A DNA stretch of 64,000 nucleotides from Candidatus Latescibacterota bacterium (lineage in GTDB: Bacteria > Latescibacterota > UBA2968 > UBA8231): assembly GCA_965261395.1 (NCBI GenBank), contig OZ253462.1, positions 5,408,001-5,472,000 of the forward strand, read 5' to 3'. The notes beneath the pieces are model-generated. The model was not told the DNA's origin. It saw nothing but the letters and a program-made list of their open reading frames with translations, and did no database searches. Shown here in pieces: positions 19,715 to 64,000 of the stretch. The position numbers and the translations under genes are program-made. How positions within the stretch are numbered: position 1 is the stretch's first letter; the number at the start of each line of letters is the position of its first letter.

Positions 19715-21631
19715 TTGACCGCCGCGACAAACAGCCCCAGCGGATTGACCCTCCGCTCCTTCGGCATCGGCTTGCTGCTGGCCTTTGGGGTCGGCGCGGT
19801 GGTTCCCTTCCTCGGCCTCTACGTACAAGGCTCGAATTCCGGGGCGTACTTCACCAGCCAGATCGCCCATCTCCTCCTCTTCCTGCTCATTTTGGTCGTC
19901 AACGCAAGCCTCGGCTCCATCCGCCGGTCTTGGGTCCTCCAGCGCGGCGAGCTAGTCGTCATTTTTATTATGACCAGCTTGGCCAACTCGGTCCCCGGGC
20001 TGCTTAGCTACTGGGTGCCGCTGGCGTCAAGTCCGTTTTACTATGCCAGCCCTGAGAACAACTGGGGCGAACTGATCCTGCCCTATATCCCCACCTGGCT
20101 GGTACCCCACGACCTAGAGGCCATTCGCGCTTTCTTTGAGGGCAACGAAGGACAGTCGAGCGCGGTCCCCTGGCAGGTGTGGCTCACGCCGCTGTTGAGC
20201 TGGTTGCCGCTAGTCGTCGCGCTGCACGTGGCCACCTTGTGCCTGATGGTCGTCGTGCGCCGGCACTGGGTTGAAAACGAGCGGCTCGTCTATCCGGTGA
20301 TGCAGCTCCCCCTCGCCATGGTGCAGGACGACGAGCGCGGCTCGCAAATCAAGCCCTTCTTCCGCAACGGAGTCATGTGGATCGGCTTTGCCGTGCCCGT
20401 GATCACCGGGACGGTCATCGGCCTGCACGCCTATTTCCCGTTCCTGCCGACGATTGACCTTTTTGTCCCCTTTCCGCTCTTCAGCTCCCGCCTGAGCTTC
20501 GCCACCTTGGGCTTCTTCTTTTTGATCCAGCGCGAAGTGACCTTTGGCCTGTGGCTGTTCACCTTGCTCAACAACCTGCAAGAGACCATCTACCGCTCCA
20601 TCGGCTGGGGCATCGAACAGGAGCCGGCCATCAGCGTGTGGAGCTACGGCCTGCCCAGCTTGGTCCACCAAGGCATGGGCGCGATGATCGTCCTCGTGTT
20701 GGGCGGGCTATGGGTCGGGCGCGAACACATCGGCAACGTCTTCCGCAAGGCCCTGCGCGGCGCGCCGGACATCGACGACAGCGACGAGATCCTCTCGTAT
20801 CGAAGCGCGGTCTTGGGCCTTATTGGCAGCGTGGGGGTCATGGCCGGCTGGCTATGGCTCCTCGGCATCCCACTGCTGGGCATCGCAACCCTCTTGTTCT
20901 TCATGTTCATAGTGTACATGGCCCTCACGCGAGTGGTGGCCGAGGGCGGCGTGGCGGTCATCTACGCCCCGCTGGTGGCTCCGGACGCGGCCGTCTCGGC
21001 CATCGGCACCTCCTTCTTCGGGGTCGGCTTGGTCGGGCTAGCCTTCACGCGGGTCTTTGCCAACGATCTGCTCAATTTCGCCATGCCCCACGTGGCCAAC
21101 AGCCTGAAGCTGAGCGGGCAAATCGAGGGGCGGCGGCGCTACCTGTTTTGGGGCATGCTGCTGGCCCTGTTGGCGGGCCTTGGCGGCGCGCTGTGGATGC
21201 TGATGCACCTCGCCTACACGTACGGGGCGATCAACTTGCGGCCACCCAATTTTATCTGGCTACCCAACTACGTGTACGACTATACGGCCACACAGATGGG
21301 CAGTCCCTCGCCGCCCAACTGGCTGGGGTGGTTCCACACCGGCGTTGGCGGCGGGGTGATGGGGCTGTTGATGCTGGCGCGCCGCTACTGGATCTGGTGG
21401 CCCTTGCATCCGATTGGCTTCCCGATCAGCTCGACCTTTCACTGGATGGCCTTCAACGCCTTTTTGGCTTGGCTCATCAAAGGGCCGATCCTGCACTACG
21501 GCGGCGTCCATCTCTACCGCCAAGTGCGGCCGTTTTTCTTGGGGATGATCCTCGGGCACTTTGCGATCTTCGGCATCTTCTGGATCATCGACACCCTCAC
21601 GGGCATGGTCGGCAACGGTCTGTTTGTCTGA
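19715..21631 (+). CDS. Polytopic membrane protein, DUF6785/DUF6784-like putative (peptide) transporter
   Basis: Many hydrophobic segments. Motifs RRHWVENERLVYP, RVVAEGG, WWPLHPIGF and PFFLGMILG. Confidence 0.7.
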   Translation: MTAATNSPSGLTLRSFGIGLLLAFGVGAVVPFLGLYVQGSNSGAYFTSQIAHLLLFLLILVVNASLGSIRRSWVLQRGELVVIFIMTSLANSVPGLLSYWVPLASSPFYYASPENNWGELILPYIPTWLVPHDLEAIRAFFEGNEGQSSAVPWQVWLTPLLSWLPLVVALHVATLCLMVVVRRHWVENERLVYPVMQLPLAMVQDDERGSQIKPFFRNGVMWIGFAVPVITGTVIGLHAYFPFLPTIDLFVPFPLFSSRLSFATLGFFFLIQREVTFGLWLFTLLNNLQETIYRSIGWGIEQEPAISVWSYGLPSLVHQGMGAMIVLVLGGLWVGREHIGNVFRKALRGAPDIDDSDEILSYRSAVLGLIGSVGVMAGWLWLLGIPLLGIATLLFFMFIVYMALTRVVAEGGVAVIYAPLVAPDAAVSAIGTSFFGVGLVGLAFTRVFANDLLNFAMPHVANSLKLSGQIEGRRRYLFWGMLLALLAGLGGALWMLMHLAYTYGAINLRPPNFIWLPNYVYDYTATQMGSPSPPNWLGWFHTGVGGGVMGLLMLARRYWIWWPLHPIGFPISSTFHWMAFNAFLAWLIKGPILHYGGVHLYRQVRPFFLGMILGHFAIFGIFWIIDTLTGMVGNGLFV

Positions 21632-21637
21632 GGAGCG

Positions 21638-22978
21638 GTGAAGATGCGATGGACAATCGGGCTGCTCGTCGCCGGCCTCGCCGGCTGCGCCGAAAATCAC
21701 AGCACGACCCAAGCGCACTTGGCCGAGTGCGCGCAGCAGAGCGAGCAAAAGCAGTATCTCCAAGCCATCGCCGCCTGCCAACGCGCACTCGCGGCTGAGT
21801 CGAGTCTCGTAGAGGCACGGCTACTCATTGGAGGTATGCTCCTCAAGCACGGCCAATTCGACCGCGCCATTGCGCACTATCAGCAGGTCCTCCAAAACCA
21901 CCCGGAGCACTCCGGTGCCTACGAGGCGCTGGGGGATGCCTATGCACGGTTGCGGCGCAACGACGAAGCGACCGCGGCCTACCAGCGAGCGATGGCCCAA
22001 GCGGCCGACCAAGCCGCGCTCTACCGCAAGCTAGCCCTCATCTACGGCGACCAAAACCGCTATGCGGCCGCGGTGGCCGCGCTGCAACAGGCGCAGACCC
22101 TCGCTCCCCAACACGCGCGCACTTATTACAACCTCGGCATGCTCTATCAGCGGCAGGCCCAGTACGCAGCCGCGCAGACCCAGCTAGAACGGGCAGTGGA
22201 ACTGAATCCGGCTTACGGCGACGCGTACTATCAGCTAGGGCAGATACACAGCCGCTTGGGTCGCGACGCAGAGGCCGAAACGAGCCTGCGCGCAGCCTTG
22301 GAGCACCAGAGCGAGTACGCGGCCCAAGCACTATCCGCCCTCGGGGCGGTTTTGCTGCGCCAAGGGCGCGACGAAGAGGCCGAAAAGGTGCTGTTGCAAG
22401 CAGTGCAAGCCGATCCGCTTGAGCCGGAAGCCCTGCACCGGCTGGGGACGCTCTACCGACAGGGCGCGCGACCGGAAATGGGGGAAAAGCTGCTGGCGGC
22501 CTTTGAGCGCGTGCGGCCTTACAGCGAGCAGATCGCGCACTACCGCCACTTGCTGCGGCGCTATCGAGAAGACGCGGACGCCCACTACAACCTCGGGGTC
22601 CTGTACGGGCGGCTGGGCTATCCCGAAGCCGCGGCCGAGCAATATCGCCGCGCCCTCGCCATCAATCCGGCCGACTTGGGTGCGCGCAACAACCTCGCCA
22701 ACAATTTGCTGAATCGCGGGCAAGCCGAGGCGGCCATTGGCGAATACGAGCGGGTCTTGGCCCTATCGCCGCGCAACACCAGAGCGTACAACAACCTCGG
22801 CACGGCCTATATGGAACTGGGTAATTTGGAGATGGCCACGCAGATTTTGCACAAGGCCGCACGCGCGGATACGGCTTATGCGGATCCCCACTACAACCTG
22901 AGTCAGATTTACTTCATGCAGGGGCGTCGAGCCGAGGGCGAGGCCGAGTTGGCGATCTACGAGAGGCTGCGCCCCTAG
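21638..22978 (+). CDS. TPR-repeat lipoprotein
   Basis: Lipobox LAGC. Repeated YYNLG/YNNLG TPR motifs. Confidence 0.9.
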   Translation: MKMRWTIGLLVAGLAGCAENHSTTQAHLAECAQQSEQKQYLQAIAACQRALAAESSLVEARLLIGGMLLKHGQFDRAIAHYQQVLQNHPEHSGAYEALGDAYARLRRNDEATAAYQRAMAQAADQAALYRKLALIYGDQNRYAAAVAALQQAQTLAPQHARTYYNLGMLYQRQAQYAAAQTQLERAVELNPAYGDAYYQLGQIHSRLGRDAEAETSLRAALEHQSEYAAQALSALGAVLLRQGRDEEAEKVLLQAVQADPLEPEALHRLGTLYRQGARPEMGEKLLAAFERVRPYSEQIAHYRHLLRRYREDADAHYNLGVLYGRLGYPEAAAEQYRRALAINPADLGARNNLANNLLNRGQAEAAIGEYERVLALSPRNTRAYNNLGTAYMELGNLEMATQILHKAARADTAYADPHYNLSQIYFMQGRRAEGEAELAIYERLRP

Positions 22979-23730
22979 GGCATCGTCACTGGGCGCGGAG
23001 CCTTGGCCATGTAGAGCGCGCGGTCGAAGCGATAGGCAATATCCACGGTCTCGATCGGCTCGTTGCGGTAGTCAAAGCGCAAGCTCACGTCCTCGATCCG
23101 CACCTCCAACGCGGCCACGTCGTGGTGCAGGGGCGGAAACGCAATGTACCCGCTGTATTCCTGGCCGCTGAACACGTATTCTTCCCGCTTGTACAAGGTT
23201 CTCTGTAGGATGTCCACGCGCTCTTGATACGAGAGATAGAGGTTGCCGGCGTTGGCCCACGAGTACGGCAAGTAGTATTCGACCATAGCCGCATACTGCA
23301 GCGAGTTATAGGTGCGTCCGTTGTCGGCGACCAAGGAGATGTTGACCGGGTCCATCAGCACCTTGGGGAACTCGTAGTTTTTGACCGTCAGGTTAAAAAC
23401 CTCAAAGCGCTTGGTCGCCCAATCCTGCTCGGGCGGGGTCCAATCCCCATAGGTGTACGGGTTGAGGTTGCTGGCGTAGGGATTCTGGTAAAATCCTTCC
23501 TTGGTGGACGAATAAGCCGCCAGTTGGCGATTGAGAAACTCGTCGCTCAAGGGGCGTAGCTCAATCTCCAAGCGACCCTGCGAAAAGGTGATGCTGCGGT
23601 CGTCGCCCACGGCGAATTGCTCGCTGTGCTGCTCAGGTCTGGGCAGGATCGGCCCGGCGAAATGCCGCAGGCCAAACTGGGCACAGCCGACGAGCGCGAC
23701 GAGCGCGAATACGAGGCTAGCTTTCTGCAT
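22975..23730 (-). CDS. Hypothetical lipoprotein
   Basis: Lipobox LVGC. GGAGGG RBS. Directly follows the 878-aa gene. Confidence 0.75.
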   Translation of the reverse strand: MQKASLVFALVALVGCAQFGLRHFAGPILPRPEQHSEQFAVGDDRSITFSQGRLEIELRPLSDEFLNRQLAAYSSTKEGFYQNPYASNLNPYTYGDWTPPEQDWATKRFEVFNLTVKNYEFPKVLMDPVNISLVADNGRTYNSLQYAAMVEYYLPYSWANAGNLYLSYQERVDILQRTLYKREEYVFSGQEYSGYIAFPPLHHDVAALEVRIEDVSLRFDYRNEPIETVDIAYRFDRALYMAKAPRPVTMP

Positions 23731-23743
23731 CAGATCCCTCCCC

Positions 23744-26380
23744 TTACAGCTCGCCGGTGGCGGCGAAGACCCGCATGAAGGCGATGGTTTCCATCAGGGG
23801 GTCATCCGCGTTCTTGAATTTCTTGCGCTCGCGCTTGAACCCGGCGTTCAGGGTGATATTGTAGCCTATATAGGCCGAAGTATTGGAGACTAAAACGGCC
23901 CAGACGAAGTTGTCGAAGTCGCCTTCCTCGCCGGCCTGCACGGTCTCTTTGGCGTTGTCGAACTTGCTAAACTCAACCCCGAAATCCACCCACGTCCTGT
24001 CCAACAGACTGTAGCGGGCGAGGAGGAAGACGGTCCCCTCGTGGTCCCGCGACGTTCGCAGATCGAGATCTGAGTGTCCGCGATTGCGGAACGTGCTCTT
24101 GAACTTGGGCGACAAGGTCAGGGCGGTGCTGAGCGGATATTGGTAGTCGAACTTGTTAATCACTCCCAAGAAAGAACGATCGGCCTTCAGCTCGGCTTGC
24201 TTGCCCTGCTGGAAGTAGCGCTCGTACTTCAGCTTGGAGGTGAAGTGAAAATGGGCGATGGCGTTGTATTTTACAGAGGCGTAGAAGCTGTTGATGAAGG
24301 TGTCCTGCGCGTCGAGGGGGTCGTTGAAGGGCACCATGCCATCCGGGTCGGTCCAGACGATTCGGTCGTCAAAGATATTGTCCCGCACCTGCTTACCGAG
24401 CTCAAAGACGGCGATTTGCAGCCCGGGATAATCCCACTCCGAAGTCAGCAGCGCGTAGGTCGCGTGATTCTCGCGGCCGCTGCTGATTTGGCGCTGCCGC
24501 AAGCGCCCAACCGTCAGGTTGGTGCCCTCGCGAAAGGCCACTCCACCGTACACATTGTAGCCCGAGCGGTCGCGCTCATAGGGCAGGTCGGCTTGTAGGT
24601 CGTCCTCAAAGCGGTCGGTGATGGTGTTGTTGTTCACGTCCATGCCGAAGAGAAACTCCGGCGAATCGACCCGGTAACGCAAAAACGCCTCGACGTAGTC
24701 GGGCTTGTCGTTCTTATTTTGGTTGAAGTCCGGGATGAAGTCGTTGTTCTCGTCGAGTCCGGGAAAGACCTCGCGGTCGCCGCCAGAAGTCGAAGCCAAT
24801 TGGGCGAACAGCACGTTAGCACCGCCTTGGTCCGAGCGCAGCCAGTCCGGGGTCTGGTCTTGATCGTCGTTGTCATCGACGAACTCAAAGAGGTGGCGGA
24901 AGGGCTGGTCGTAGCTGATGTTGCCAGAGCCGTCGGCCATGTACGCGGTCGTGCTGTACTCTGGATCGAGATAGAAGGTTTCGCCGTAGCCGAAGAAGGG
25001 GTAGCTGACGTACGAGGCCGTCAGGTAAAATGCCTCGGAAGTTTTTTCGGTGGCCGGCAGCTTGCGGAAGTTCTGGTTGGGAAAGCGCTGGAAGCGCCGG
25101 TTGATCGCGTACTCAGTGCTGAGGTCAAACCCCTTGATATCTGTGACGTTGAAATCCACACCCAAAATCTCGTTGGCCGTCGGCAGCCCGTACTCAAAGC
25201 GGAGAAAGTGCTGGTTCGACCCGTCGGTGATGTTGTTCTCGGCGTGGGCCACGGGCAGAAAGATGGGGCCGCCGAGGCTGGTGACTTGCTTGTTGGACGC
25301 GACCTCGACCCGGTAGTCGTTGGCCAAGATCAACTCGAACTCCAGCTTCTCAGCGTCCCGATACGTCGGGGTGGTCTCGGTCAGCTCGAAGTCGTTGCGA
25401 ATGTCGTAGGTCAACAAAATCGCGTCCGTCCCCTTGGCCTTGAGGACCCCGTCCTCTTGCACGCCGCCCTCCACGAGGGGGACAATCTTGTTCTGCACCT
25501 CCCCGTCGATCAGGATGCGCTCGAGAAAGAGCACGGCCCCTTCTTCCGGCGATTCGGGTGAGTCGTCCGAGATGCGAATGACCACTTCTTCTACATTGCC
25601 CTGATTCTGCGGGCGAGTCAGGACGCCCTTGAGCGAGTTGTCGTCCAAGCTCAGCTCGGAATCAGCGTGGTGCGCGTTGACCCAAGTGATGCCCACCTTG
25701 CCGAAGTCGCCCACTTGCGCCACGCCCCGGCCCCCAAGGACCCGGGTGGAGTTCAGGGCCGTGTTGGCGCTGGAAAGCTGGGTTCTGGCGAGGCTACCCG
25801 GAGCGCTGACCCGCGACCCCAAGAAGGTCGCGGCGTACTTGTCGGACAGGAAGTCCCACTGAATGCCGTTGAAGGCGGGCTTGGAAAAGGTCATCGGCGT
25901 CAAGGTCGTGCGGATCGCGTCGCCGAGGGTGACGGCCGTGTGGAATTGTCCTTTGCTCGCCGAAGAGACGATGACGTTGCTAAACCAAGAATTGAAGCGC
26001 GGACTCTTAAAAAGCGAAGAGCCAAAAGAGCGCGGATTGGTCTCGGTCCAGTCGTAGATCTCCCAGCCGCGGGCGATGTAGTTGCCCAACGGGTCGTAGA
26101 GGCGCTCGCCGTTGAGCAGGGTTCCGACGTAGCGCTGGTAGGCTTCGCGGGCGTAGTTGCTGTACTCCCAGCCGCGCCAGCGGTACTCGTAGTACAAGTT
26201 CTGCGGCAGGTACCACTTGCGGATCGCCGGGGCCAAGGCTCCGGGATGGATGCGAGCGCCGACGATCCCAGGTTCGGAAATCTCGCGGTAGGGATTCGGC
26301 AATTGAGCCTCTGCCGCTGTCCCACAGGCCACACTGCCCACCAGCAGCCAAGCGATTCGCTCCAGTCCCTTCTTATACAT
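23744..26380 (-). CDS. Secreted 878-aa hypothetical protein, possible outer-membrane beta-barrel with Ca-binding loops
   Basis: Signal peptide (AEA/Q). Aromatic-rich alternating strands in the C-terminal half. D/N-rich loops DDNDDQD, DENNDFIPD and DVNNNTITD. Confidence 0.65.
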   Translation of the reverse strand: MYKKGLERIAWLLVGSVACGTAAEAQLPNPYREISEPGIVGARIHPGALAPAIRKWYLPQNLYYEYRWRGWEYSNYAREAYQRYVGTLLNGERLYDPLGNYIARGWEIYDWTETNPRSFGSSLFKSPRFNSWFSNVIVSSASKGQFHTAVTLGDAIRTTLTPMTFSKPAFNGIQWDFLSDKYAATFLGSRVSAPGSLARTQLSSANTALNSTRVLGGRGVAQVGDFGKVGITWVNAHHADSELSLDDNSLKGVLTRPQNQGNVEEVVIRISDDSPESPEEGAVLFLERILIDGEVQNKIVPLVEGGVQEDGVLKAKGTDAILLTYDIRNDFELTETTPTYRDAEKLEFELILANDYRVEVASNKQVTSLGGPIFLPVAHAENNITDGSNQHFLRFEYGLPTANEILGVDFNVTDIKGFDLSTEYAINRRFQRFPNQNFRKLPATEKTSEAFYLTASYVSYPFFGYGETFYLDPEYSTTAYMADGSGNISYDQPFRHLFEFVDDNDDQDQTPDWLRSDQGGANVLFAQLASTSGGDREVFPGLDENNDFIPDFNQNKNDKPDYVEAFLRYRVDSPEFLFGMDVNNNTITDRFEDDLQADLPYERDRSGYNVYGGVAFREGTNLTVGRLRQRQISSGRENHATYALLTSEWDYPGLQIAVFELGKQVRDNIFDDRIVWTDPDGMVPFNDPLDAQDTFINSFYASVKYNAIAHFHFTSKLKYERYFQQGKQAELKADRSFLGVINKFDYQYPLSTALTLSPKFKSTFRNRGHSDLDLRTSRDHEGTVFLLARYSLLDRTWVDFGVEFSKFDNAKETVQAGEEGDFDNFVWAVLVSNTSAYIGYNITLNAGFKRERKKFKNADDPLMETIAFMRVFAATGEL

Positions 26381-26402
26381 CTCAATCCTCTCGATTGGGC
26401 AC

Positions 26403-28724
26403 TCAGTAGGCGAGGCCGATAGTCCGGGTTATTTGCTGTTCGTCGGACTGGGTTTGCAGGCGAATTCGGCACAGGTACAGTCCGGGAGCTGCCCGGCCCT
26501 GGGCGCCATCCGCGCCCGACCAAGTATAGACGTAGTAGCCATCCGGCCCGCGGTCGCCCGCCAACTTTTGCACCAACCGCCCGTCCAGGCTGTACAGGGC
26601 GACCTCGGGCACCACATCCACATTGAGGACCTGAAAGCGGATCTGGGCTTGGTCGCCGATCGCGTCCCCGTTGGGGGTGGCGATCCGGGGGTGGATCGAA
26701 ACATTGTCGAGCAAGCGAGCCGGGACGGCGGGGAAAAATACATGGGTCGCCCGGGGCGTGTGCGCCGCTGGGGTCACCTCCTGCCAGAGGCCCGGTCGCG
26801 CCGATTCGCCAATGAACGCATTGAAGCGCGTGGGGTTGCGGTCTATCTGTGTGCGCAACCGCACCTCCACGGTGTCCGCGGGCTGCTCTATGGCTTGGGG
26901 AAGCTGAATCACCAACGAGTCCCTAGTAATGAGTTCGATTTGCGCTGCAACTTCTGCGCCGCTCACTGTAACTTGCAGTTGGTCGGCGTGGGATGGGGTG
27001 GTAAAGAGTAGCCGATCGAAGCGAGCCGGATCCGTGAAGTCGCCCCATATCTTGTAGGTAAAGGTCTCGGGCGTCCCCGGCTGGGCCGTCTTGGGGTGGA
27101 TTTCGCCCTCGGCCCCGCGCAGTACGGCGTCGGTGAAGTTCACGTCTAGCCGGCGCATCGTCGGCGCAACTTCGGGCCGGTCGGAGCGCAGGGTCAGCTT
27201 GATTTGCAAGAATCGCCGCGGGCTGGGTGAGAGGAACTGGCCCAGCTCTCGGTAGGGCGCGCTCCACGGGCTCCAGTCGGCACCGGCGACGACGAGGGTA
27301 TCCGTATCGCCGCGTAGGAACTTGTTGAGGTCTTCGTACTCGGCCTTACCTGCCAGCGGCGACCCATCCAATTTGTAGTAGAGGACCTCCTCGGTCAGCT
27401 CGTACCCGGTGCGGGTGACGACCTCTACTTGGGTGCCTTCCGGCGTGGCGGCGTCCCAGAAGATGCCTTGGATCTGCTTGGCACGTAGGTCGCCAGCAAA
27501 AGCGCCGAGGTCGATGAAGTCGGATTCTAGCTCCACTTCGGCGAAGTGCCCGGTGGGGACGACCATCAGCTCGGCCATGTCCCCGTTTGCACCCACGTAA
27601 ATGGCGGCGAGGTAGCGAATCGCCTGGGGCTGGGCCATGATGTACTGGAAGTCGCTGTCGGAAGACCGGTCGTTGTCGTCGTATAGCTGGTCGAAATCGA
27701 GGTCGCCCGTCAGGGTCAGGCTGCCGTCTGAAGCCAAGAGCCGATGGTCGTTGACGCGGGCATACGACACCCCGTACCCCGAGTCGGCCAAGCCCGTGGT
27801 GTTGGCACCGATCTGGAGAATGCGATCAACCCACACGAAGGTACCCATGTCCAAGATCCACACCGTCGGGTCCTCCGCGTCGCCGTGTACGGCCCAAGAG
27901 GTATTAAAATCGCCGTCGATCAGGTCTGTGCCACGGCCCGTCTTGTCGAGGAGGCTGCCGCCGCGAGCGAGCGAACCCAAGGCCACATTGCTGCCAAAGG
28001 TATAGGCTTCCAATTCGGCCAAGGCCGCGTCCTCGCTCTTGCTGTCCATCTTGATGCGGATGTATTGCAGCGTGCGGTAGGTCGGGTCGAATACTTGGAT
28101 ATCGGTCGCATCTTGGAACAGAACCCTGGTGCTGATGTCGGGCAGGGGCGCGAGATCGTATTCGACCGCGGTTTGGTCGTTAAAGCGGGTGGTGCCCCCG
28201 AGGATTTCGTAGTGGAAGAGGTTGGCCTGAAAGGAACGCCGCTGCCCGTCCGAGCCCATGACGCGAAACTCCCTGAGCGGCCGGCCACCTGCGGCGTCTG
28301 GAAATACCAAGCGGATGCGGGTGACCGGGACGGCGCGGCCCAAGTCGAGCTCGATCCACCAATCGTCCAAGTCCGCGGCCGGGTCGGGTTTCCAATAGGT
28401 CGCCGGGTCCCCGTCGGCGATGTTATCGGCCCTGAATTGGGCACCGGGCGCGGTTGAGCCGACCCGCCAGATGCCGCCCTGAATCTCCTCGGCGTTGGCC
28501 AGCTTGTGGGTGAATTGTCCGGCGTCGAGTGCGGCGTTGATGTCGTTGGCAAACTTCGCCGGGACAAAAGAACCATCCGCACTAAATTCAATGGTGCCAG
28601 GGGGAATTTTCCACTCTTCCCACTGCGCCTGCTGCTCGACTCGGTACACTTGCGACTCTTGGCCTCCAACCGACCCCAAGCCGGCGAGGACGAGGCCGCA
28701 AGCATACGTTGCAATGCGCTTCAT
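26403..28724 (-). CDS. Secreted protein with discoidin-like regions and FlgD/CHU_C-like C-terminal domain
   Basis: Signal peptide. DGDPATYW...WIELDLG. SPSPRRFLQ. TPNGD. WSG.D...PGLY. Ends GLAY. Confidence 0.8.
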   Translation of the reverse strand: MKRIATYACGLVLAGLGSVGGQESQVYRVEQQAQWEEWKIPPGTIEFSADGSFVPAKFANDINAALDAGQFTHKLANAEEIQGGIWRVGSTAPGAQFRADNIADGDPATYWKPDPAADLDDWWIELDLGRAVPVTRIRLVFPDAAGGRPLREFRVMGSDGQRRSFQANLFHYEILGGTTRFNDQTAVEYDLAPLPDISTRVLFQDATDIQVFDPTYRTLQYIRIKMDSKSEDAALAELEAYTFGSNVALGSLARGGSLLDKTGRGTDLIDGDFNTSWAVHGDAEDPTVWILDMGTFVWVDRILQIGANTTGLADSGYGVSYARVNDHRLLASDGSLTLTGDLDFDQLYDDNDRSSDSDFQYIMAQPQAIRYLAAIYVGANGDMAELMVVPTGHFAEVELESDFIDLGAFAGDLRAKQIQGIFWDAATPEGTQVEVVTRTGYELTEEVLYYKLDGSPLAGKAEYEDLNKFLRGDTDTLVVAGADWSPWSAPYRELGQFLSPSPRRFLQIKLTLRSDRPEVAPTMRRLDVNFTDAVLRGAEGEIHPKTAQPGTPETFTYKIWGDFTDPARFDRLLFTTPSHADQLQVTVSGAEVAAQIELITRDSLVIQLPQAIEQPADTVEVRLRTQIDRNPTRFNAFIGESARPGLWQEVTPAAHTPRATHVFFPAVPARLLDNVSIHPRIATPNGDAIGDQAQIRFQVLNVDVVPEVALYSLDGRLVQKLAGDRGPDGYYVYTWSGADGAQGRAAPGLYLCRIRLQTQSDEQQITRTIGLAY

Positions 28725-28735
28725 AGACCCTCGCT

Positions 28736-30817: not shown

Positions 30818-30832
30818 GGCATTCGACCTTGG

Positions 30833-32758: not shown

Positions 32759-32846
32759 TATCTTTTGCTTGGGCGCTGGGCCTTCGGCCGGTAAATTTGC
32801 CAAAAGCCACCACCCCAAACGACGAGGATGCCCGCCGCCGACCACC

Positions 32847-34163: not shown

Positions 34164-34199
34164 GCGGTCTGCTCATCGACCGTCCTATCTGTGCTGGCT

Positions 34200-36589: not shown

Positions 36590-36601
36590 CAGGAGGCCGA
36601 C

Positions 36602-46808: not shown

Positions 46809-46866
46809 TTCGTTGGCAGTTCCGTGGGGCAGTCAGTTTCGACAATTTGAATCCATAGGTGGCAAT

Positions 46867-56600: not shown

Positions 56601-58757
56601 ATGGCAGGCATCGTGTTGCTGTGTTTTTGCGGCGTCTTGTTGGGTGCTGTGCCCGTGTTGGGAGGAACGGAATACCGTCTAGGCGGGATCGGTGGCAACC
56701 CTTGGCAGGTCCTCCTGGCCGGGGAAAGCGCCTACCAAGCCTTTGCTGCTGACGGCGAAGTGGAGCGCCAAGTATCCGTGGGGATTGCGCCCTTGGGGGC
56801 CGGGGCCGATACCCTGATCGACTTTTCTGGCACCTCAATTCAGCCTCGGCTCATTGACCCCAGCGTCAATATCGCCCGGGCCGATGTCGAAGCCGGTAGG
56901 GCGACCATCCCCTTGCCCTATATCCCCGGCTCTAGGGTACTCAACAACAATAGTTGCTGGTCCTGGGGCAATATGCAACCCTCGATCAAGCTAATGCTGG
57001 ACGGCGATCCGACCACGGCCGCCTTTCGCACCTTTGTCCAACGGGTCGGCTCGCCGCCGGGCGTGGGCTATGGCTGGGGCAATTCCGTGATATTCGATTT
57101 TGGAACTGGTGTGCCGATCAACCGCATCCGCTTCTATCCCCGCCTGAGCCGCCGGGAAGACCGCCCGTTAATCGAGACCATGCGCCCTCCCACCCCCGCC
57201 GTCGAAACCTTTGGCCAAGACAGCTTCCTCGACAATTTCCTCGCCTGGTACGAGATCCGCAGCGGCGATAATTCGATTGTCTTTGCCAATGACTCATGCA
57301 ATGCCAACGACTACGGCAGCGGCGGAGATCGCAATATCAACGTTGTGGCCACCAGCAAGCGGCGCACAGTCCTAGGCGACTTGACCTGGGTGCGCAATGG
57401 CGACCCCAGACTGACGGTGCTAAAAACCACCCGCGAAAACCTCGACCCGGTCGTCGATCTGCGCTTCCCCGTCCGCTCGACCCGCTGGCTCACCCTGCGC
57501 GCCTTCCCCCTGCGCGACTATGAAGTCGCCGAATTCGAAATCTACGGCGACGGCTACGTCCAAGAGGCCACCTACCTCACCCCCATCCTCGACTTCGGAC
57601 AAGCCGTCACCTGGGGCAAAATACGCTGGGAAGGTGAGGTGCCCGACGGCACCCGCATCGAAATCCGCACCCGCACCGGCCACACCCCCGATCCACTGCT
57701 CTACTTCGCCCCCAATACCAACGACGACCTCGTATCCATCACCCGCGCCCAATACGACGCAATCGATATCGCTGTTCAATTACTTCCCATCTACGATGCC
57801 GACCACTGGAGCTTCTGGTCGTCGCCCTACGAGTTTGCCGCCGGTCAACGCAATCCCAATCAGCCGGCCAGCGACTGGCACGACGGGATCCTGCTGTTGT
57901 CGCCCGGCCCCAGCCGCTACATCCAAATAGCCATCAAGCTCTTCGCCGACTTCCATGTGGCACCCCGCCTCGACCAACTCACCCTGCAGTTGAGTGAAAC
58001 CCTGTCGGCGCAGGCGCTCGTCGGCGAGATCTGGCCGATTGAGGTCGCCTCCTTTGAACCCACCCCCTTTACCTATGTGGTTCTGCCCACCCTCAGCGAC
58101 GACAACGCCGGCTTCGACCGCTTGGAAATCCTCACCCACGTCCGGGCGCACGGCGTGCGCGCGGTGCGCATCGATGGCCAGCCAGTAGGCCTAGACCAGT
58201 TCGTCCCGCAATTACTCGACGATCGCCTGATCGTGTCCTTCCCACCGCTGACCGGCACCGCCGACAACTTCAAGCAGGTCGAGGTCGACTTCGACGTGCC
58301 GGTGTTGCGCTTTGGCACTGAGTTCAGCGGGTGGGTGTTCAGCAGCACCGATCCCGACCAGATCCGGCAGCGCATCGATCCAGGCAACGCCACGTTCCGC
58401 TTTGCCGGCGACTTGCTGGCCGTCAACACGCCGGTGGGGGGCGACTTGCTGGTAGATGTGGAGGTGCCTGAGGTGTTCACCCCCAACGGCGACGGGATCA
58501 ACGAGACCTTGCCCATCGCCTACAAACTGCGCGAAGTCACGGCTGACCGGCCGGTGCAGGTGCGCATCTACGACTTGGCGGGTCGGCTGGTGGCGCACCT
58601 ACCCGTGTTCAACGCCCGCAGCGGGGTCTTCATCCAAGAGTGGGATGGCCGCGACGAGCAGGACGCCTTGGTTCAGCCCGGCACCTATATCTACGAATTG
58701 ACCCTTGATTCCGAGGAGCAATACACCCAACAAGGCGTCTTTGCCGTCGCTTACTAG
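56601..58757 (+). CDS. Secreted FlgD/CHU_C-tailed protein, tandem paralog 4
   Basis: Near-identical framework to paralogs 1-3. AAGGAGG RBS. Confidence 0.85.
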   Translation: MAGIVLLCFCGVLLGAVPVLGGTEYRLGGIGGNPWQVLLAGESAYQAFAADGEVERQVSVGIAPLGAGADTLIDFSGTSIQPRLIDPSVNIARADVEAGRATIPLPYIPGSRVLNNNSCWSWGNMQPSIKLMLDGDPTTAAFRTFVQRVGSPPGVGYGWGNSVIFDFGTGVPINRIRFYPRLSRREDRPLIETMRPPTPAVETFGQDSFLDNFLAWYEIRSGDNSIVFANDSCNANDYGSGGDRNINVVATSKRRTVLGDLTWVRNGDPRLTVLKTTRENLDPVVDLRFPVRSTRWLTLRAFPLRDYEVAEFEIYGDGYVQEATYLTPILDFGQAVTWGKIRWEGEVPDGTRIEIRTRTGHTPDPLLYFAPNTNDDLVSITRAQYDAIDIAVQLLPIYDADHWSFWSSPYEFAAGQRNPNQPASDWHDGILLLSPGPSRYIQIAIKLFADFHVAPRLDQLTLQLSETLSAQALVGEIWPIEVASFEPTPFTYVVLPTLSDDNAGFDRLEILTHVRAHGVRAVRIDGQPVGLDQFVPQLLDDRLIVSFPPLTGTADNFKQVEVDFDVPVLRFGTEFSGWVFSSTDPDQIRQRIDPGNATFRFAGDLLAVNTPVGGDLLVDVEVPEVFTPNGDGINETLPIAYKLREVTADRPVQVRIYDLAGRLVAHLPVFNARSGVFIQEWDGRDEQDALVQPGTYIYELTLDSEEQYTQQGVFAVAY

Positions 58758-58848: not shown

Positions 58849-60858
58849 CTATCGCCCCTGCAATCGCGCCAACGCGCGCTGGGCTTTGGCGTACTCAGGG
58901 GCCAAGCTCAGGGTCAGGCGGTAGAACTCGGCCGCCTTGTCGAATCGGCCCAAGTCGTGGTAGGCCGCCCCCAAATTAAAGGCGATCAAGTGATTGCCGG
59001 GCGCGGCTTTTAACGCTATGGCAAAATAATCAACCGCCCGCTCCAACGCCCCTTGCCGGACCTCGATCAAGCCCAGCTCATTGGCCGCCTGCGCCCGCAC
59101 CTTTTCCCCGCTTAGCGCCGCTTCAAAGGCTTCCTGGGTCCGCTCTGTTGCCCCCATTCTCTTATAAACCCTCCCCAGCGCCAGAAAAACCGCCGCGTCG
59201 GCCTTTTTTGCCAAAACTCGGCGGTAGTGCTCCACCGCTTGCTCGTATCGTCCCGTGGCCCGGTACAGAGCCGCCAAGTTGAGGTGCAATCCCCGATCGT
59301 CGGGCGCTTGCGCCAAGGCCTGCCGATAAACTGCCTCGGCTTCGTCGTAGCGCCTTAGCGCCACCAGCGCCGCACCCAGATTATGGTGGGCTCGCAGGTA
59401 ATTTGGATCGAGCTGCACTGCGGTCCTAAAGGAGCGCGCCGCAATCGCGTACTGCCCCCGTTGGGCTTGGACGCGCCCCAGATCAAAGTGTACTTCCGCG
59501 TCGGCCAAAGAGTCGGCCGGCCGCAGGCCAGCGTTGGCAGCTATCCCCAGCAAAACGACAAAAGCCAAGCCGATCCCCAAGGGACGCCACTGCCGGTCCT
59601 GCCCCTGCTGCACCAGCCAGACTAGGGCGTACCCGGCAAATAGTAGCAGCAGCGGCACTAGGGGCAGGCGATAGCGGCCGGTGATAAAAAAGAGCAGCAG
59701 CGAGGCGCTGTACGCGCCGGTGCAGAGCAGCAGTAAACCCGCCTGAGGCCGGTGTCGCCAAGCCAGCACCATGCCCACAGCGGCTAAAGGTCCCAGCAGT
59801 CCAAAAGGAAAGGCGAAGTGATGGATTTTCCACAGCAAGACGCTCATCAGCCAAGAATAGATGCGGGCGAAGTACACGTCTTGGTTGCGCTTGATTTCCT
59901 CTCCTCGCGCCAACAAGAACGCCTTGTACCCCAACAACCGCACAAAATCCCCGGGCGCACCGGCGATCCAGTCGCTAGCTTGCCGGTAGAAGTAGGCCGA
60001 GCGCTCGGCGTACCCCACTTGACCCGCGGCCAGCGGCTGCTCCATTAAGGCCTCCCATTCCGGCCCTGGGCGGATCCCTACCAGACGGTTGTAATCGGGA
60101 TGGTTGCCCAAGTAGAAATTCACTCCGCCGTTCCAGGACAAGGGGATGAACTCGCCGCTGACCGCCCAATTCCTCGCCGTCACTACGCCAACCACTGAGC
60201 AGGCGGTCGCCGCAAAAAGCAGGCACCAGACCAGCTTGCTCCGCGCTACTCGCTCAGCACTCCTCCAGTACCATAGACAGGCGCAAGGAGCCAACAGGGC
60301 CGCATTGGGCACGGCGACTATGGCCAAGCCTTGGACGAGGCCCGAGACTAGAGCCTGTCCCCATCCCCGGCCGGGCTGGAGCAGGACAAAGAGCAACAGG
60401 AGATTGAGGAAAACGGCCAGCGCAGTGGGCAGCAGCTCGCCGGCAAAATAGATGGAAGGTCCGTATAAACAGGCCATGATTCCAGCGAGGAGACCAACTC
60501 GGGTGCCAAACACCTGCCGGCCGATGCCAAAGACCAAGGCACAAGAGGCCGCTGCCAAGAGGAACTGGACAAGTCGGGGCGTCCAGAACAAGTCGCCGGA
60601 AACGGCGTAGATCAAGGCGAGAAAATAGGGGTATAGAGGCGGCTGCCAAAAGGGCTTGTCCCCCACCCAGGACACCTCGGCGAGCTGCCGCGCCTGAGCC
60701 ACATAGGAGTGGGCATCCACTACCGGTGCCGAGAAAAAGGGATTGTCTTGACTGTGCCCCAAATAGACCAGACGCACGACCAACGCCAAAAGAAAAAGAC
60801 CACCTGCGACCTTCAATTCGCGTCGGCTCATCGAGGCGGCCGAGGGCGGGTTATTCAT
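58849..60858 (-). CDS. GT-C (PMT/ArnT, GT39-like) membrane glycosyltransferase with C-terminal TPRs
   Basis: VDAHSY, FWQPPLYPYFLA, multiple TM helices, RYRLP, then HFDLG/HHNLG TPRs. Confidence 0.8.
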   Translation of the reverse strand: MNNPPSAASMSRRELKVAGGLFLLALVVRLVYLGHSQDNPFFSAPVVDAHSYVAQARQLAEVSWVGDKPFWQPPLYPYFLALIYAVSGDLFWTPRLVQFLLAAASCALVFGIGRQVFGTRVGLLAGIMACLYGPSIYFAGELLPTALAVFLNLLLLFVLLQPGRGWGQALVSGLVQGLAIVAVPNAALLAPCACLWYWRSAERVARSKLVWCLLFAATACSVVGVVTARNWAVSGEFIPLSWNGGVNFYLGNHPDYNRLVGIRPGPEWEALMEQPLAAGQVGYAERSAYFYRQASDWIAGAPGDFVRLLGYKAFLLARGEEIKRNQDVYFARIYSWLMSVLLWKIHHFAFPFGLLGPLAAVGMVLAWRHRPQAGLLLLCTGAYSASLLLFFITGRYRLPLVPLLLLFAGYALVWLVQQGQDRQWRPLGIGLAFVVLLGIAANAGLRPADSLADAEVHFDLGRVQAQRGQYAIAARSFRTAVQLDPNYLRAHHNLGAALVALRRYDEAEAVYRQALAQAPDDRGLHLNLAALYRATGRYEQAVEHYRRVLAKKADAAVFLALGRVYKRMGATERTQEAFEAALSGEKVRAQAANELGLIEVRQGALERAVDYFAIALKAAPGNHLIAFNLGAAYHDLGRFDKAAEFYRLTLSLAPEYAKAQRALARLQGR

Positions 60859-62677
60859 ACTGCACACCCCGTCCTTGCTCGATTAGCAAATTCCGCTCGG
60901 CGGGTAGATCTCGAAATACCTGCGCGGTCCCATCCGGCCATTGGACTTCCAGCAGGTCAATGCGCTCGTAGCCGCCCAAGCCGAAGTGGAGCCGTCGATC
61001 ACCAGCCGATAAATAGCTGCTCCCACTTCTAACTAAGCGGCGCTGCTCCAACGAACCCGCCACCAGCCGCACTTCGGCTCCCACCGCATCGCGGTTGGCC
61101 GTTGTAGCCACCAGCTTGACTGCGGTCCAATTGCGCCCGTTGCCGTGGTGATTGCGCGCCAGCTTGGCCGGCCCCCCGCAATTGGTCACCAGCAGGTCCA
61201 GATCGCCGTCCCCGTCCCAGTCGCCCCGGGCCAGTCCCCGACTTATTTGCTCTTGCGCGAACCAACTCCCCGCACTGTCCGCCACATCGGTGAAGCGGCA
61301 GGAGCTGTCGTTGCGAAATAGCTGATGCTCTTGGGCATAGCGCACCCCGGGTTGCAGGATATGAACGCGGTCCAAGACATGGCCGTTGGCCACGTACAGA
61401 TCTTGGTCGCCGTCGTGGTCGTAATCGAGAAACGCAGTGCCAAAGCCCAAGTAGAGCCAACTCGGCCGGCCCAAGCCCGCAGCCGTGGTCACATCTTTGA
61501 AATAGGTTCCTTCATTGCGATAGAGCGTATTGGTTTCGCGCGAGAAATTGGTGACGAACAGATCCCAGTCGCCATCGCGGTCGCAATCGCCGATGGCCAC
61601 TCCCATACCGGCCTCGGCTTGGCCGCGCACATTGTAGGCCACCCCGGCTTGTAGGGCTACATCGCGGAAGGTGCCATCGCCGGCGTTTTGGTAGAGGAAG
61701 TTGGCCACCCCGTCGTTGGCCACGTATAGATCCTGGTAGCCGTCCTCGTTCCAGTCCCAAGCCACCACGCCCAACCCCTTGCCATTGGGATTGGCAATGC
61801 CAGCGGCAATGGATACATCGGCAAAAGTACCGTCCCCCTCGTTGTGGTAGAGCACATCGGGCACGCCCCCGTACTCGCTGGGCGCGCAGTACGAGCGCGT
61901 ATCTTCCCCAATGGCGCGCAAGCCCGCGTCGTCAGTGCGGATGAAACCACCGCAGATTTTGTTGGTCGCTGGGGTAAAATCGAGATAATTGACCACATAC
62001 AGATCGAGCGCGCCATCGTTGTCGCGGTCGAAAAAGGCGGCGCTGGTGCTCCATTGGGGAGCCTCGACGCCACGACTGCGGACAAAGGTGGCGTCCCCTC
62101 GGTTGTGATAGAGGGCGTTAGGGCCGTAGTTGGTCGCGTACAGATCCTGGTCGCCGTCGTTGTCGGCATCGGCCACGGCCACGCCCATGCCATAGCCCGG
62201 GTCCGCGGCCCCACCGGCATTGGGCACGGCGACAAAAGTACCTTTCCCTTCGTTGCGGTAGAGCGCATTACCCCTTGGTTCCACCTCAGCCACGGGGGCC
62301 AATTCGACCGCATAGTCGGCCGGATCTGCGGAGCGGCCCTCGGCGCTAGGGGTCAATGGGGCCACCCAATAGAGGCCCTCTTCTCTGCGCGCCAAGTTGA
62401 TCGGCCGGGTGTCCAAGCCCCTTAGATCGAAGCCGTTGACCAGATAAATATCTAAGTCGCCGTCCTCGTCAAAGTCGGCCAAGGCCCCGCCCGCGCCCAT
62501 GGTCTCAATGAGAAAGTACTGCCCGGCGGCACCGTTTTCGTGGACAAAGGAAAGGCCCGCTTGGTCGGTGGCATCGGTGAAGTACACCGCCGGCGACTCG
62601 CTTTGGCAGCCCATGGACCATCCGAGCGCCAAGATAGCCGTCAATCGTTGAATATGGCGGCCCACCCTTCCTCTCAA
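60851..62677 (-). CDS. CRTAC1-family FG-GAP plus ASPIC/UnbV protein (probable lipoprotein)
   Basis: SMGC. DxDxDGDxD repeats. NRDAVGAEV...HFGLG...VQWPDG. Confidence 0.88.
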   Translation of the reverse strand: MRGRVGRHIQRLTAILALGWSMGCQSESPAVYFTDATDQAGLSFVHENGAAGQYFLIETMGAGGALADFDEDGDLDIYLVNGFDLRGLDTRPINLARREEGLYWVAPLTPSAEGRSADPADYAVELAPVAEVEPRGNALYRNEGKGTFVAVPNAGGAADPGYGMGVAVADADNDGDQDLYATNYGPNALYHNRGDATFVRSRGVEAPQWSTSAAFFDRDNDGALDLYVVNYLDFTPATNKICGGFIRTDDAGLRAIGEDTRSYCAPSEYGGVPDVLYHNEGDGTFADVSIAAGIANPNGKGLGVVAWDWNEDGYQDLYVANDGVANFLYQNAGDGTFRDVALQAGVAYNVRGQAEAGMGVAIGDCDRDGDWDLFVTNFSRETNTLYRNEGTYFKDVTTAAGLGRPSWLYLGFGTAFLDYDHDGDQDLYVANGHVLDRVHILQPGVRYAQEHQLFRNDSSCRFTDVADSAGSWFAQEQISRGLARGDWDGDGDLDLLVTNCGGPAKLARNHHGNGRNWTAVKLVATTANRDAVGAEVRLVAGSLEQRRLVRSGSSYLSAGDRRLHFGLGGYERIDLLEVQWPDGTAQVFRDLPAERNLLIEQGRGVQYE

Positions 62678-64000
62678 TACACCACGTGAACGAGCTGCAT
62701 CATCTGGGTCCGCACATTCCTGCGTGCATCTGCATCCACCTCCACCCGCAAGATATACGTCCCCGGCGGCACCCGCTCGCCCGCGTCATCCACCCCCTCC
62801 CAAGCCACCTCGTATTGCCCACTCGCCCGCTCTCGCACCTGTTCCAGCGCCCAAATGCGACGACCCGCCAGATCGTGCACCGAGACGATCACCGCCTGAG
62901 TTCCATCCAAGCGCAGCACTTTAAAGCCAATCAGCGCTGCGTCATTAACTCCATCCCCATTGGGCGTCACGGCTTTTGGGACCAGCGCCAGCTCCGCCAA
63001 ACCCACCTGTCCCGAGGGCACCAGCACCCGGAGGACGCCGCTTTCCACTTCGGCCACGGTCTCTTGATCGGCTTCGACCAATTGCCAAGTTCCCGAATCA
63101 TCGCGGTTGCCCACCCGTCCCGCAAAGGAAACGCCGTGGCCAAATAGCGCGGTCAATACATCGACCGCTACTACCTCGTCGCGACCAACCGCGTCGGGCA
63201 GGCGCACCCACAGCGAGTCGGCCGCGGTCTTAAGCACCTCCACCACATCTAGGCCCAGCACTGCGCCGCCTCCGGCAGCCACTTCGGCCGCAGAGCCAAG
63301 GCGCACCTCCCGCAGCGACAGCGGCGTCCCTCCCGAACTGACCAATAACACCTCGTCAATGCCTGGATCACCCACCCGTCGCACCGGCCGCACGAAAAAG
63401 GTCAGCGGCGTGTCCTCCCCCGGATGTTCCACCTGCACTGGGAATACCTCGCCCAAGGCTCTGCCCACCCACGGTTGGGAAAACGACACCTCCAAGCGCC
63501 GCAATAGCACGGAATTTTGCGGGTCGTCACTGCTCAATCGCACCTGGGCCTTGAGGAAGCGGCGCGGCGACGGCGAAGTGATGACTTGGCCCGACCGCAG
63601 GTGCGGTTTGCTCCAAGGGCTCCAAGTTTCCTCATCGACGACCAGCACATTGAGCGAATCCCCTTTAAGCGCGGCAATCAATTTATGGTACGCTTTTTTG
63701 TCCACTTCAGCGCCGTCGCTCCGGTAATACGTGGTGTTAACTTTGGTCCGATCGCCGGTTCGGGTGGCCACCTCAATGCGCGTACCGGGCGGGATGTCGG
63801 CCTCCCACTGAAGCGTGGTCAAATTCCTGCTACTGCTCAAGTCGATCAACGGCGATTCCAACACCACCTCCGGCTGATAGCCCTCGCCGTAGGCCTGTAG
63901 TTCGGACCAGCCGGCTCTGTTCCCCCCCCTGCCCACCAGATAGTCGAAGGCAATGTAGCGGACCTTCTGCAGCTCAAAGCGCACCTCTTGGAACCGAGGC
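62674..64000 (-). CDS. FlgD/CHU_C-tailed family protein, 5'-truncated by the window edge
   Basis: SELQAYGEGY. ATRTG. SPSPRRF. TPNGDGVND. WEGVD...PGTY. Ends HVVY. Confidence 0.8.
   Translation of the reverse strand, partial: PRFQEVRFELQKVRYIAFDYLVGRGGNRAGWSELQAYGEGYQPEVVLESPLIDLSSSRNLTTLQWEADIPPGTRIEVATRTGDRTKVNTTYYRSDGAEVDKKAYHKLIAALKGDSLNVLVVDEETWSPWSKPHLRSGQVITSPSPRRFLKAQVRLSSDDPQNSVLLRRLEVSFSQPWVGRALGEVFPVQVEHPGEDTPLTFFVRPVRRVGDPGIDEVLLVSSGGTPLSLREVRLGSAAEVAAGGGAVLGLDVVEVLKTAADSLWVRLPDAVGRDEVVAVDVLTALFGHGVSFAGRVGNRDDSGTWQLVEADQETVAEVESGVLRVLVPSGQVGLAELALVPKAVTPNGDGVNDAALIGFKVLRLDGTQAVIVSVHDLAGRRIWALEQVRERASGQYEVAWEGVDDAGERVPPGTYILRVEVDADARRNVRTQMMQLVHVVY

Follow-up and report, generated by a model that had tools for sequence, protein, structure and literature searches.

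A recurrent cassette of Tyr-terminal proteins and a large predicted outer-membrane barrel in Latescibacterota, with a tail related to type IX secretion domains

We analysed a 64-kb stretch of the genome of a Candidatus Latescibacterota bacterium (GCA_965261395.1, contig OZ253462.1, positions 5,408,001 to 5,472,000 of the forward strand; hereafter the window), which carries eight open reading frames (ORFs) whose products share a tail ending in tyrosine, three of them beside a gene for an 878-aa protein. We refer to the Tyr-terminal proteins as Y and to the 878-aa protein and its relatives as O; the host genome is a single contig of 6.55 Mb. All eight Y ORFs were recovered at the coordinates in Table 1, and alignment together with a hidden Markov model (HMM) of the protein body bore out the observation of a first-pass annotation that they have motifs, a tail and a terminal Tyr in common. 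The partners named in that annotation were likewise in place, as judged by Pfam and by the translations: besides the 878-aa ORF, these are a 251-aa ORF with a lipobox, a DUF6785/DUF6784 protein, a TPR protein, two UnbV/FG-GAP proteins and a protein that combines PMT_2 with TPR. The ORF at Y position 1 extends to 28856, but translation probably begins at the Met before the signal peptide.

Table 1. Genes of the two Y clusters and their partners; positions are counted from the first base of the window
Feature	Position	Strand	Basis
D: polytopic inner-membrane protein, DUF6785 + DUF6784	19715..21631	+	PF20581 388 bits, PF20580 82.5 bits
TPR repeat protein, same strand as D and convergent with the Y-O operon	21638..22978	+	multiple TPR Pfam families
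l: 251-aa lipoprotein, last operon gene	22975..23730	-	lipobox LVGC
O: 878-aa predicted large outer-membrane beta-barrel	23744..26380	-	AlphaFold2 model, fold matches
Y position 1, next to O	26403..28724	-	F5/8 type C 43.8 bits; body HMM E 3.5e-112
Y position 2	28736..30817	-	alignment; body HMM E 8.8e-115
Y position 3, modelled member	30833..32719 (ORF to 32950)	-	AlphaFold2 pLDDT 91.4; CHU_C 36.7 bits
H: 301-aa secreted protein, C-terminal WGx(I/L/V)K motif family	34200..35105	-	29-member family
U: FG-GAP + UnbV/ASPIC + TPR protein	46813..49629	+	Pfam
Y tandem array copy 1	49788..51947	+	CHU_C 46.5 bits; body HMM E 5.4e-140
Y tandem array copy 2	52061..54226	+	CHU_C 47.8 bits; body HMM
Y tandem array copy 3	54338..56488	+	CHU_C 45.9 bits; body HMM
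Y tandem array copy 4	56601..58757	+	CHU_C 48 bits; body HMM
G: GT-C-type (PMT_2) glycosyltransferase with TPR repeats	58849..60867	-	PMT_2 39 bits + TPR families
U: FG-GAP + UnbV/ASPIC protein	60851..62677	-	Pfam
Y cut by the window end, whole gene 904 aa	62674..64000	-	body HMM; directly downstream of two O genes

The alignment of the eight Y proteins comprises a conserved body of ~310 residues and a tail of ~100 residues, with hydrophobic N-terminal signal-like segments discernible by eye; columns that are invariant include WS.WS.P, GE and FD as well as, in the tail, PN.D and the Tyr at its end. The sequences are 25–32% identical to the first of the set, and the three encoded beside O show only 25–30% identity among themselves, as against 91–94% within the four-gene array. 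All ORFs of the genome were then translated and searched with HMMs made from the window's own alignment. The eight window genes scored far beyond chance (E 1e-112 to 1e-140), and the body model picked out 152 ORFs across the genome, so that what had been described as an eight-member family is much larger. ORF calling was mechanical, so that start positions are approximate and fragments may be among the 152 (the tail is missing in 7), and the family sizes given here for Y, O and their partners depend on the thresholds chosen. Y genes make up 5.25% and O genes 1.95% of the bases of the genome, together 7.2%.

All folds reported here for Y and O are predictions. The AlphaFold2 model of Y position 3, built with 44 homologs, is all-beta, and its predicted local distance difference test (pLDDT) score is that listed in Table 1. 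Residues 47–218 adopt a CBM32/discoidin fold in the model, matching domain 1 of galactose oxidase (Z 14.5, root-mean-square deviation [rmsd] 2.7 over 137 residues) as well as many CBM32 modules, several of them at Z 13–14 (Z 12–14.5 overall), and one match covers two tandem CBM32 modules; residues 392–628 superpose on the C-terminal part of PorU, including its C-terminal domain (CTD), with Z 12.8. Y is thus confidently modelled as one or more CBM32/discoidin-like jelly rolls, Ig-like domains and a CTD resembling those of type IX secretion systems (T9SS). Unlike known CBM32/discoidin (F5/8 type C) modules, most Y copies are too diverged for the Pfam model, and carbohydrate binding is a prediction from the fold. 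F5_F8_type_C exceeded the Pfam cut-off in just one of the eight window proteins, and the only other Pfam families matched there were F5_F8_type_C_2, CHU_C, FlgD_ig and, below threshold, one DUF2271; SusD/RagB was not matched in any of the eight.

When the N-terminal parts of 67 related proteins were scanned with Pfam, F5/8 type C families appeared in 22 at E≤1e-4 (17 above cut-off), mostly on the long N-terminal part of the Y gene that adjoins O. We had considered Y as a carrier of varied cargo and rejected this, as only discoidin-type domains were found in the 67 N-terminal parts. For the same reason we regard Y as a single architecture with a fast-evolving lectin-like head. Mean identity is 39% in the tail, 29% in the body and 23% in the N-terminal lectin-like part, the most variable of the three.

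The tails were compared with the models for known T9SS sorting domains. CHU_C (PF13585) exceeded its cut-off of 27 in six of the eight window tails (30.4–48 bits) and was absent in two, and FlgD_ig reached its cut-off (27 bits) in five (27.2–31.7 bits) and scored 17.4–21.5 bits in the other three. The NCBIfam model for type A domains (TIGR04183) gave 16.7–20.2 bits, below its cut-off of 23. An HMM of the Y tail, whose matches in Y reach the last residue of the protein, yielded 227 matches in the whole genome, and these fell into two groups. Among the 146 matches at ≥55 bits, 145 have a Y body and 145 end in Tyr. The remaining 81, all below 50 bits, include 68 that are C-terminal, none of which has a Y body; these 68 end in Arg (35), Lys (24) or another residue (9), and all five that were scanned passed the type A model TIGR04183 at 32–38 bits. 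Because the tail HMM splits its matches in this way, the genome has ordinary type A cargo plus one discrete Tyr-terminal tail class. The Y tail is homologous to T9SS CTDs, and judged by its sequence it is a discrete, lineage-specific class that lies nearest to type B CTDs and is distinct from the type A tails of the same genome.

The O protein was predicted to be a large outer-membrane beta-barrel of a family without a name that is almost confined to Latescibacterota. Its AlphaFold2 model, built with 47 homologs (pLDDT 73, predicted template modelling score [pTM] 0.72), shows long antiparallel strands along most of the chain, and from the strand list we estimate about 26–28 barrel strands. The leading Foldseek and VIA matches of this model were all outer-membrane barrels: SlpA (Z 13.6, 412 residues), FimD (Z 13.6, 338 residues), MtrB, LptD and porins. 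Thus Deinococcus SlpA, the FimD usher and the barrels of the LptD-LptE and MtrB-MtrA/C systems resemble O in fold and fall in the same size class of barrels, and some loci have a lipoprotein gene after O, but no sequence relationship to them exists and only the general barrel architecture is common to all. The matches had a high rmsd and template modelling (TM) scores of only 0.15–0.27, and O is for this reason considered to lack a close structural relative; TonB-dependent receptors appeared solely as low-ranking generic barrel matches. Neither O nor a second O protein matched any Pfam family even at E≤10, O matched no NCBIfam model, and plug and TonB-dependent-receptor domains were accordingly not found in O with either collection. 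In an Atlas search O fell among clusters without a name, the nearest named one being DUF6029 at 0.89, which we take as a lead only. The family comprises 46 paralogs in the host genome and 988 representatives at 50% identity among 1.84 billion proteins. Residues ~499–600 form an acidic segment with many Asp and Asn residues; confidence in the model is low there (pLDDT <50), yet this segment is the most conserved part of the family. It holds the peptide patterns used in the scan of related loci described below, and it may be a calcium-binding region.

Y and O genes are tightly linked in this genome. None of the 46 O genes is farther than 3.9 kb from a Y gene, and the gap has a median of 43 bases; all 46 are closer than 5 kb, compared with at most 18 of 46 in 1000 random placements. 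Directly upstream of O and on the same strand there is a Y gene in 30 of 46 cases and another O gene in 9, and the adjacent upstream runs of Y have a length of one at 17 loci, two at 6 and three at 8, while Y clusters hold up to seven Y genes. Only three of the window's Y genes had been placed with a barrel in the first-pass annotation, the others being assigned to CRTAC1-like and GT-C partners. This split is an effect of the window edge, because two O genes (G000:C1:5473210-5475942 and 5475945-5478674, neither with a Pfam match) adjoin the Y gene at 62674 just past the end of the window, upstream of that gene; a second window cluster lacking a barrel was therefore rejected.

The linkage extends to other genomes. 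We scanned one genome per species for O, obtained at least 553 stretches and examined the best 80 loci, which come from assemblies titled Latescibacterota, from some titled Gemmatimonadetes or Gemmatimonadota, and from one each titled Handelsmanbacteria, Aminicenantes and "uncultured bacterium". In 75 of these best 80 loci Y lies within 10 kb of O, mostly in the order Y-Y-Y-O; the five without Y are short or have O at the edge of the locus. All 191 ORFs with a Y body in these loci carry the tail, and Tyr is the last residue in 183 of the 188 that are complete, as it is in 118 of 120 Y homologs from the databases. The databases list homologs of O and Y in assemblies of Latescibacteria/Latescibacterota and Handelsmanbacteria, and one labelled Desulfobacterales; these homologs are named only "hypothetical", "discoidin domain-containing" or by a T9SS sorting domain.

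We also sampled 151 genomes evenly from the phylum, of which 95 contained O and 90 contained Y: both occurred in 90 genomes, O only in 5 (as weak, divergent matches), Y only in none and neither in 56. PorU exceeded its cut-off in 93 genomes. The 51 genomes of three families (f2–f4) had no PorU above cut-off and also no O or Y; their best PorU matches (at most 280 bits) were in ORFs of ~1,900 aa and covered only the first two thirds of the model. Four genomes of another family (f8) have PorU and lack both O and Y. Y and O are thus nested within the PorU-bearing lineages, a pattern that, because of the kinship among these genomes, amounts to few independent events. The PorU-related ORFs of ~1,900 aa in f2 and f3 (e.g., G039:C1:4187008-4189167) match model positions ~5–740 at 260–280 bits and have a different architecture.

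The first-pass annotation had called for a search for T9SS core genes, and this gave a divided answer. SprA (TIGR04189, 594 bits), PorU (618 bits) and, adjacent to PorU, a PorV/PorQ-family protein (233 bits) were each found above cut-off, whereas the models for GldK, GldL, GldM and GldN brought up no ring or motor components. A T9SS-associated M6-like protein beside the PorU/PorV-family pair scored 288 bits, below its cut-off of 600. In this region (L096, G000:C1:5596001-5616000) the pair is followed by the M6-like protein, a 1036-aa TolB-like propeller protein and a metalloprotease-like protein with a type A CTD. What the GldK model matched in part were small proteins of FGE-sulfatase type (e.g., G000:C1 3337352-3337810, 5704751-5705188 and 5171561-5172022); several are encoded directly beside UnbV/FG-GAP genes, and the two may form another recurrent pair.

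We propose that Y is a lectin-like cargo delivered by the T9SS and received by the cognate barrel O encoded downstream, much as type B CTD cargo is received by PorP/SprF, and that it probably serves carbohydrate capture; by analogy with the type B system we put the probability of this reading at about one half. Y would be exported by Sec and would cross the outer membrane through the SprA translocon, after which the downstream O would receive it and hold it at the surface in the role that PorP/SprF-like barrels play for type B cargo. This would yield ~32 variant loci, each for a surface complex that is built around a barrel, binds carbohydrate and probably captures nutrients, surrounded by accessory genes for a SurA-like peptidyl-prolyl isomerase (PPIase) lipoprotein, H, l, UnbV/FG-GAP proteins, GT-C/TPR proteins and DUF6785 membrane proteins. 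We favour this route from Y through SprA to O because the cassette repeats the logic of type B secretion with a different barrel.

According to excerpts of two papers on the T9SS of Bacteroidota, type B cargo (SprB-SprF, Fjoh_3952-Fjoh_3951 and PG1035-PorP being examples; PMC12618676, PMC9143113) resembles Y in having a Sec signal and a C-terminal beta-rich domain that scores on the CHU_C and type B models, in having its barrel gene directly downstream, and in including "orphan" cargo genes that stand apart from barrels. Excerpts of the same sources state that type B cargo binds PorP-like barrels for anchorage (PMC9143113), that orphan type B substrates share a shuttle, and that at the surface the cargo remains attached to the PorP-like barrel (PMC12618676, PMC9143113). 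Both systems also coexist with type A cargo, SprA, PorU and PorV. They differ in that O, a protein of ~880 aa from an unrelated family, has more than 24 predicted strands and an acidic segment that is conserved, and its genes often stand in tandem; in that the Y tail ends in a near-invariant Tyr, scores below the TIGR04131 cut-off and occurs on one architecture only; in that the present genome has 152 cargo and 46 barrel genes, compared with 12 type B substrates in F. johnsoniae; and in that the phylum is Latescibacterota, with GldK/L/M/N not detected in this genome.

Several results weigh against the proposal that O receives Y as a T9SS cargo. On the side of the secretion system, the models for GldL, GldM and GldN had no match in the genome and that for GldK only partial matches of FGE-sulfatase type, and PorP/SprF (PF11751, TIGR03519) was matched nowhere in it, O included, although none of 14 control genomes matches these PorP/SprF and Gld models either, so that the absence of these families is not established. 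O, at ~880 aa, is far longer than the 273- and 292-position PorP/SprF models, and in hhalign its profile met the PorV-family protein of the genome with a probability of only 0.4%. On the side of the cargo, the type B model TIGR04131 scored 16.3–30.6 bits on the window tails, below its cut-off of 35 in all that match. The tail is not a modular signal on varied proteins: it was found on this single body architecture only, and for that reason it may simply be how a conserved protein ends, with no role in sorting. Pairing is also less complete when counted from Y, in that 97 of the 152 Y genes have an O within 10 kb and 55 lie farther from any O. Finally, Mantel correlations with the adjacent O were lower for the tail (r 0.445) than for the body (r 0.59), and the partial correlation of the tail given the body was 0.13, a contrast that is tempered because the longer body gives less noisy distances. 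Complex prediction for O with the last 109 residues of a Y gave a score of 0.00 in both runs, with the controls not folded, and counts neither way. The suggestion of a lineage-specific sorting signal with its own barrel thus held in part: there is a discrete tail class, and it is tightly and conservedly linked to a predicted barrel, but tail and barrel covary weakly once the body is taken into account. Conserved synteny, a barrel model for the 878-aa protein and tails below the NCBIfam cut-offs for types A and B all go against the outcomes by which the first-pass annotation would have been refuted.

Another reading is a self-contained system of export and assembly independent of the T9SS, in which O would be an usher-like or two-partner-like pore for Y, the SurA-like lipoprotein its chaperone and the free C-terminal Tyr strand the recognition element. 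FimD is among the best fold matches of O, and in the model a stretch of shorter strands and short helices (residues ~245–365), which follows the sixth long strand, may parallel the usher plug. Furthermore, clustering of the 417 called genes that lie within 8 kb of an O gene identified a SurA/PPIase-type protein, often with a lipobox (P), of whose 29 members 24 are near O; the GldK/L/M/N result and the near-invariance of the terminal Tyr among relatives (183/188 and 118/120) would fit as well. However, SlpA, MtrB, LptD and porins score like FimD, so that the barrel matches are generic, and neither the usher family PF00577 nor any other Pfam family was matched in O. The tail is homologous to T9SS CTDs, and none of the 51 genomes that lack a true PorU has Y or O. 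We therefore give this explanation little credence.

The remaining partner families also recur near O. H, a secreted protein of ~310 aa, has 19 of its 29 members within 8 kb of O, and 24 of the 29 copies carry WGx(I/L/V)K within their last 16 residues, which constitutes a second conserved C-terminal signature in the same loci; H had no Pfam match even at E≤10 and a PDB sequence search returned nothing meaningful, and its Atlas neighbours, some of which have CBM9_1, provide a lead only. For l there are 15 phmmer relatives in the genome, and in a stricter BLAST cluster 9 of 12 lie within 8 kb of O; neither Pfam at E≤10 nor a PDB sequence search gave a match. G has 12 close paralogs, several directly after an O gene, and UnbV proteins number ~43 in the genome. 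One locus (L106) has the full order D-Y-Y-Y-O-H-l-P-T on one strand. D has at least 12 hydrophobic segments in a crude hydropathy scan, and a PDB sequence search with it returned nothing meaningful; of 57 DUF6785 paralogs in the genome, only 33 lie within 10 kb of Y or O, and the coupling of the cassette to an inner-membrane transporter that had been part of an analogy to SusCD loci is thereby weakened. A scan of 82 further flanking genes from 20 loci found enzymes of sugar-acid metabolism (HpcH aldolases, GFO/IDH/MocA, enolase-superfamily proteins, UxuA, aldo-keto reductase and PhyH) and transport genes (ABC solute-binding proteins and permeases and an SSF symporter), but a sugar-binding domain of glycoside-hydrolase type in only one, which also counts against a capture function.

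O could instead be a substrate channel and Y its functional partner only, in uptake of the kind encoded by polysaccharide utilization loci (PULs). The general T9SS route (PorV/PorU) would then serve both the export and the anchoring of Y, the import of what Y binds would fall to O, and DUF6785 proteins or ABC importers would carry it across the inner membrane. The sugar-acid enzymes and transporters in the flanks agree with such a system, as do the occurrence of Y and O only where PorU occurs and the 55 of 152 Y genes without O within 10 kb. The tail, moreover, is better conserved than the body (39% against 29%) and yet adds little covariation with O beyond it. The copy numbers of Y and O are reminiscent of SusC/D pairs. 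Against this, O has no plug, TonB-dependent-receptor or other Pfam signature, glycoside hydrolases are almost absent from the flanks, and the DUF6785 cluster has 58 members, of which only 15 are found within 8 kb of O; the tail fails the type A model of PorV-dependent cargo (16–20 bits vs 23) and forms a separate class. We consider a channel with Y as a mere partner unlikely.

The comparison with SusC/SusD loci of Bacteroidota, which had been drawn for the function of the module, is weak for similar reasons. Both consist of dozens of paralogous loci that pair an outer-membrane barrel with surface proteins having carbohydrate-binding folds (predicted, in the case of Y), with transport and catabolic genes nearby. 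The present cassette, however, is without a TonB-dependent receptor or plug and without a SusD fold or family, Y has a T9SS-like tail in place of a lipid anchor, and glycoside hydrolases are nearly absent from the loci scanned.

The variability of Y could also indicate that the cassettes serve adhesion rather than nutrition, as a variable coat by which the cell would attach to glycans of a host or of particles or would vary its surface. The lectin-like part is the most variable of the protein (23% mean identity), the tandem Y copies of the window are recent (91–94% identical), and proteins with leucine-rich repeats (LRRs) and Receptor-L domains are found in some loci. However, in 39 of 53 cases a Y had its best match outside its own locus in a Y that stands at the same place relative to O, against 43% expected, and such position-specific subtypes suggest that the complex is fixed and does not vary freely. 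Genes for sugar-acid catabolism and for transporters often lie nearby, and the cassette is also present in assemblies titled with lake and other non-sponge sources. A coat of this type is in our view quite improbable. These readings are not mutually exclusive, and that of Y as T9SS-delivered cargo of a cognate barrel could be joined to uptake through that barrel. In this fuller version Latescibacterota may have evolved a nutrient-capture machine of their own at the outer membrane, in which a new kind of barrel would use the Tyr-terminated, T9SS-derived tail to dock lectin-like proteins, as many as three and each specific to its position, and would conduct the captured carbohydrate. The unit would have been amplified to 30–45 substrate-specific loci per genome that stand in for the SusC/D or TonB-dependent systems of Bacteroidota relatives, and the tail would add a third class to the T9SS sorting signals, one with its own receptor barrel and outside Bacteroidota. 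We offer this as a tentative proposal that is, taken as a whole, probably wrong in some part.

A full-text literature search found no paper linking Latescibacter* with type IX secretion or T9SS, and none on DUF6785. Term searches of two Latescibacteria genome papers (PMC12993501, PMC4454575), in the portions of their text covered, met no mention of FlgD or discoidin, nor in PMC12993501 of "secretion" or "outer membrane"; under those terms the corresponding portions of PMC4454575 speak of porins, TonB-dependent import and type VI secretion, and not of a Y-O module. A 2024 paper listing FCB phyla with a possible T9SS does not name Latescibacterota in the excerpt available. We rate the barrel family and the tail class as new, and the arrangement as one of a known kind, cargo with a cognate barrel, here in PUL-like multiplicity. 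In this uncultured and widespread phylum, a genome of 6.5 Mb devotes about 7% of its length to a single cassette of two parts, and the barrel of that cassette has neither a name nor a characterised relative. If the pairing of tail and barrel is true, the type B logic of a cargo with its own shuttle barrel would extend beyond Bacteroidota, with a new class of Tyr-marked signal and a new family of receptor barrels; if the capture reading is true, the cassette would offer a first handle on carbohydrate uptake in Latescibacterota, including sponge symbionts. Either way it provides an annotation rule for hundreds of "hypothetical proteins" per genome, and it is so sharply defined that these hypotheses are directly testable.

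Some further observations concern the surroundings of the cassette. Just upstream of D, positions 14230-19614 (+) encode a 1794-aa protein with DEAD/DEAH helicase, Helicase_C and MrfA Zn-binding (MZB) domains. Divergent from the Y operon is a gene for a hydrophobic protein of ~400 aa (32952-34160, +) that belongs to no Pfam family, the best match being NQR2/RnfD/RnfE at E 0.049. The stretch between the two clusters (35357-45983) encodes catabolic enzymes similar to those in the scanned flanks; its genes are for two GFO/IDH/MocA oxidoreductases, two HpcH/HpaI aldolases, a luciferase-like monooxygenase, a transaldolase-type protein, an M55 D-aminopeptidase and an MIP channel. Rfam had no match in positions 19000–64000. 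Contigs from four RNA libraries of one study, 95–99% identical, cover most of positions 19000–38000; because these are assembled contigs, they show presence only and not transcription, strand or operon structure. Their highest word depth (39–84) falls at 33.1–35.4 kb, which corresponds to the genes for the hydrophobic protein and H. Elsewhere, the eukaryote-like LRR and Receptor-L-domain proteins lie in or beside Y-O loci at L098:1352-2383, L098:15285-16987 and L105:5046-6308, and an integrase-core (rve) gene (L109:1641-2735) and a PIN-domain gene (L108:14084-14506) lie within such loci and hint at movement or duplication of the cassette.

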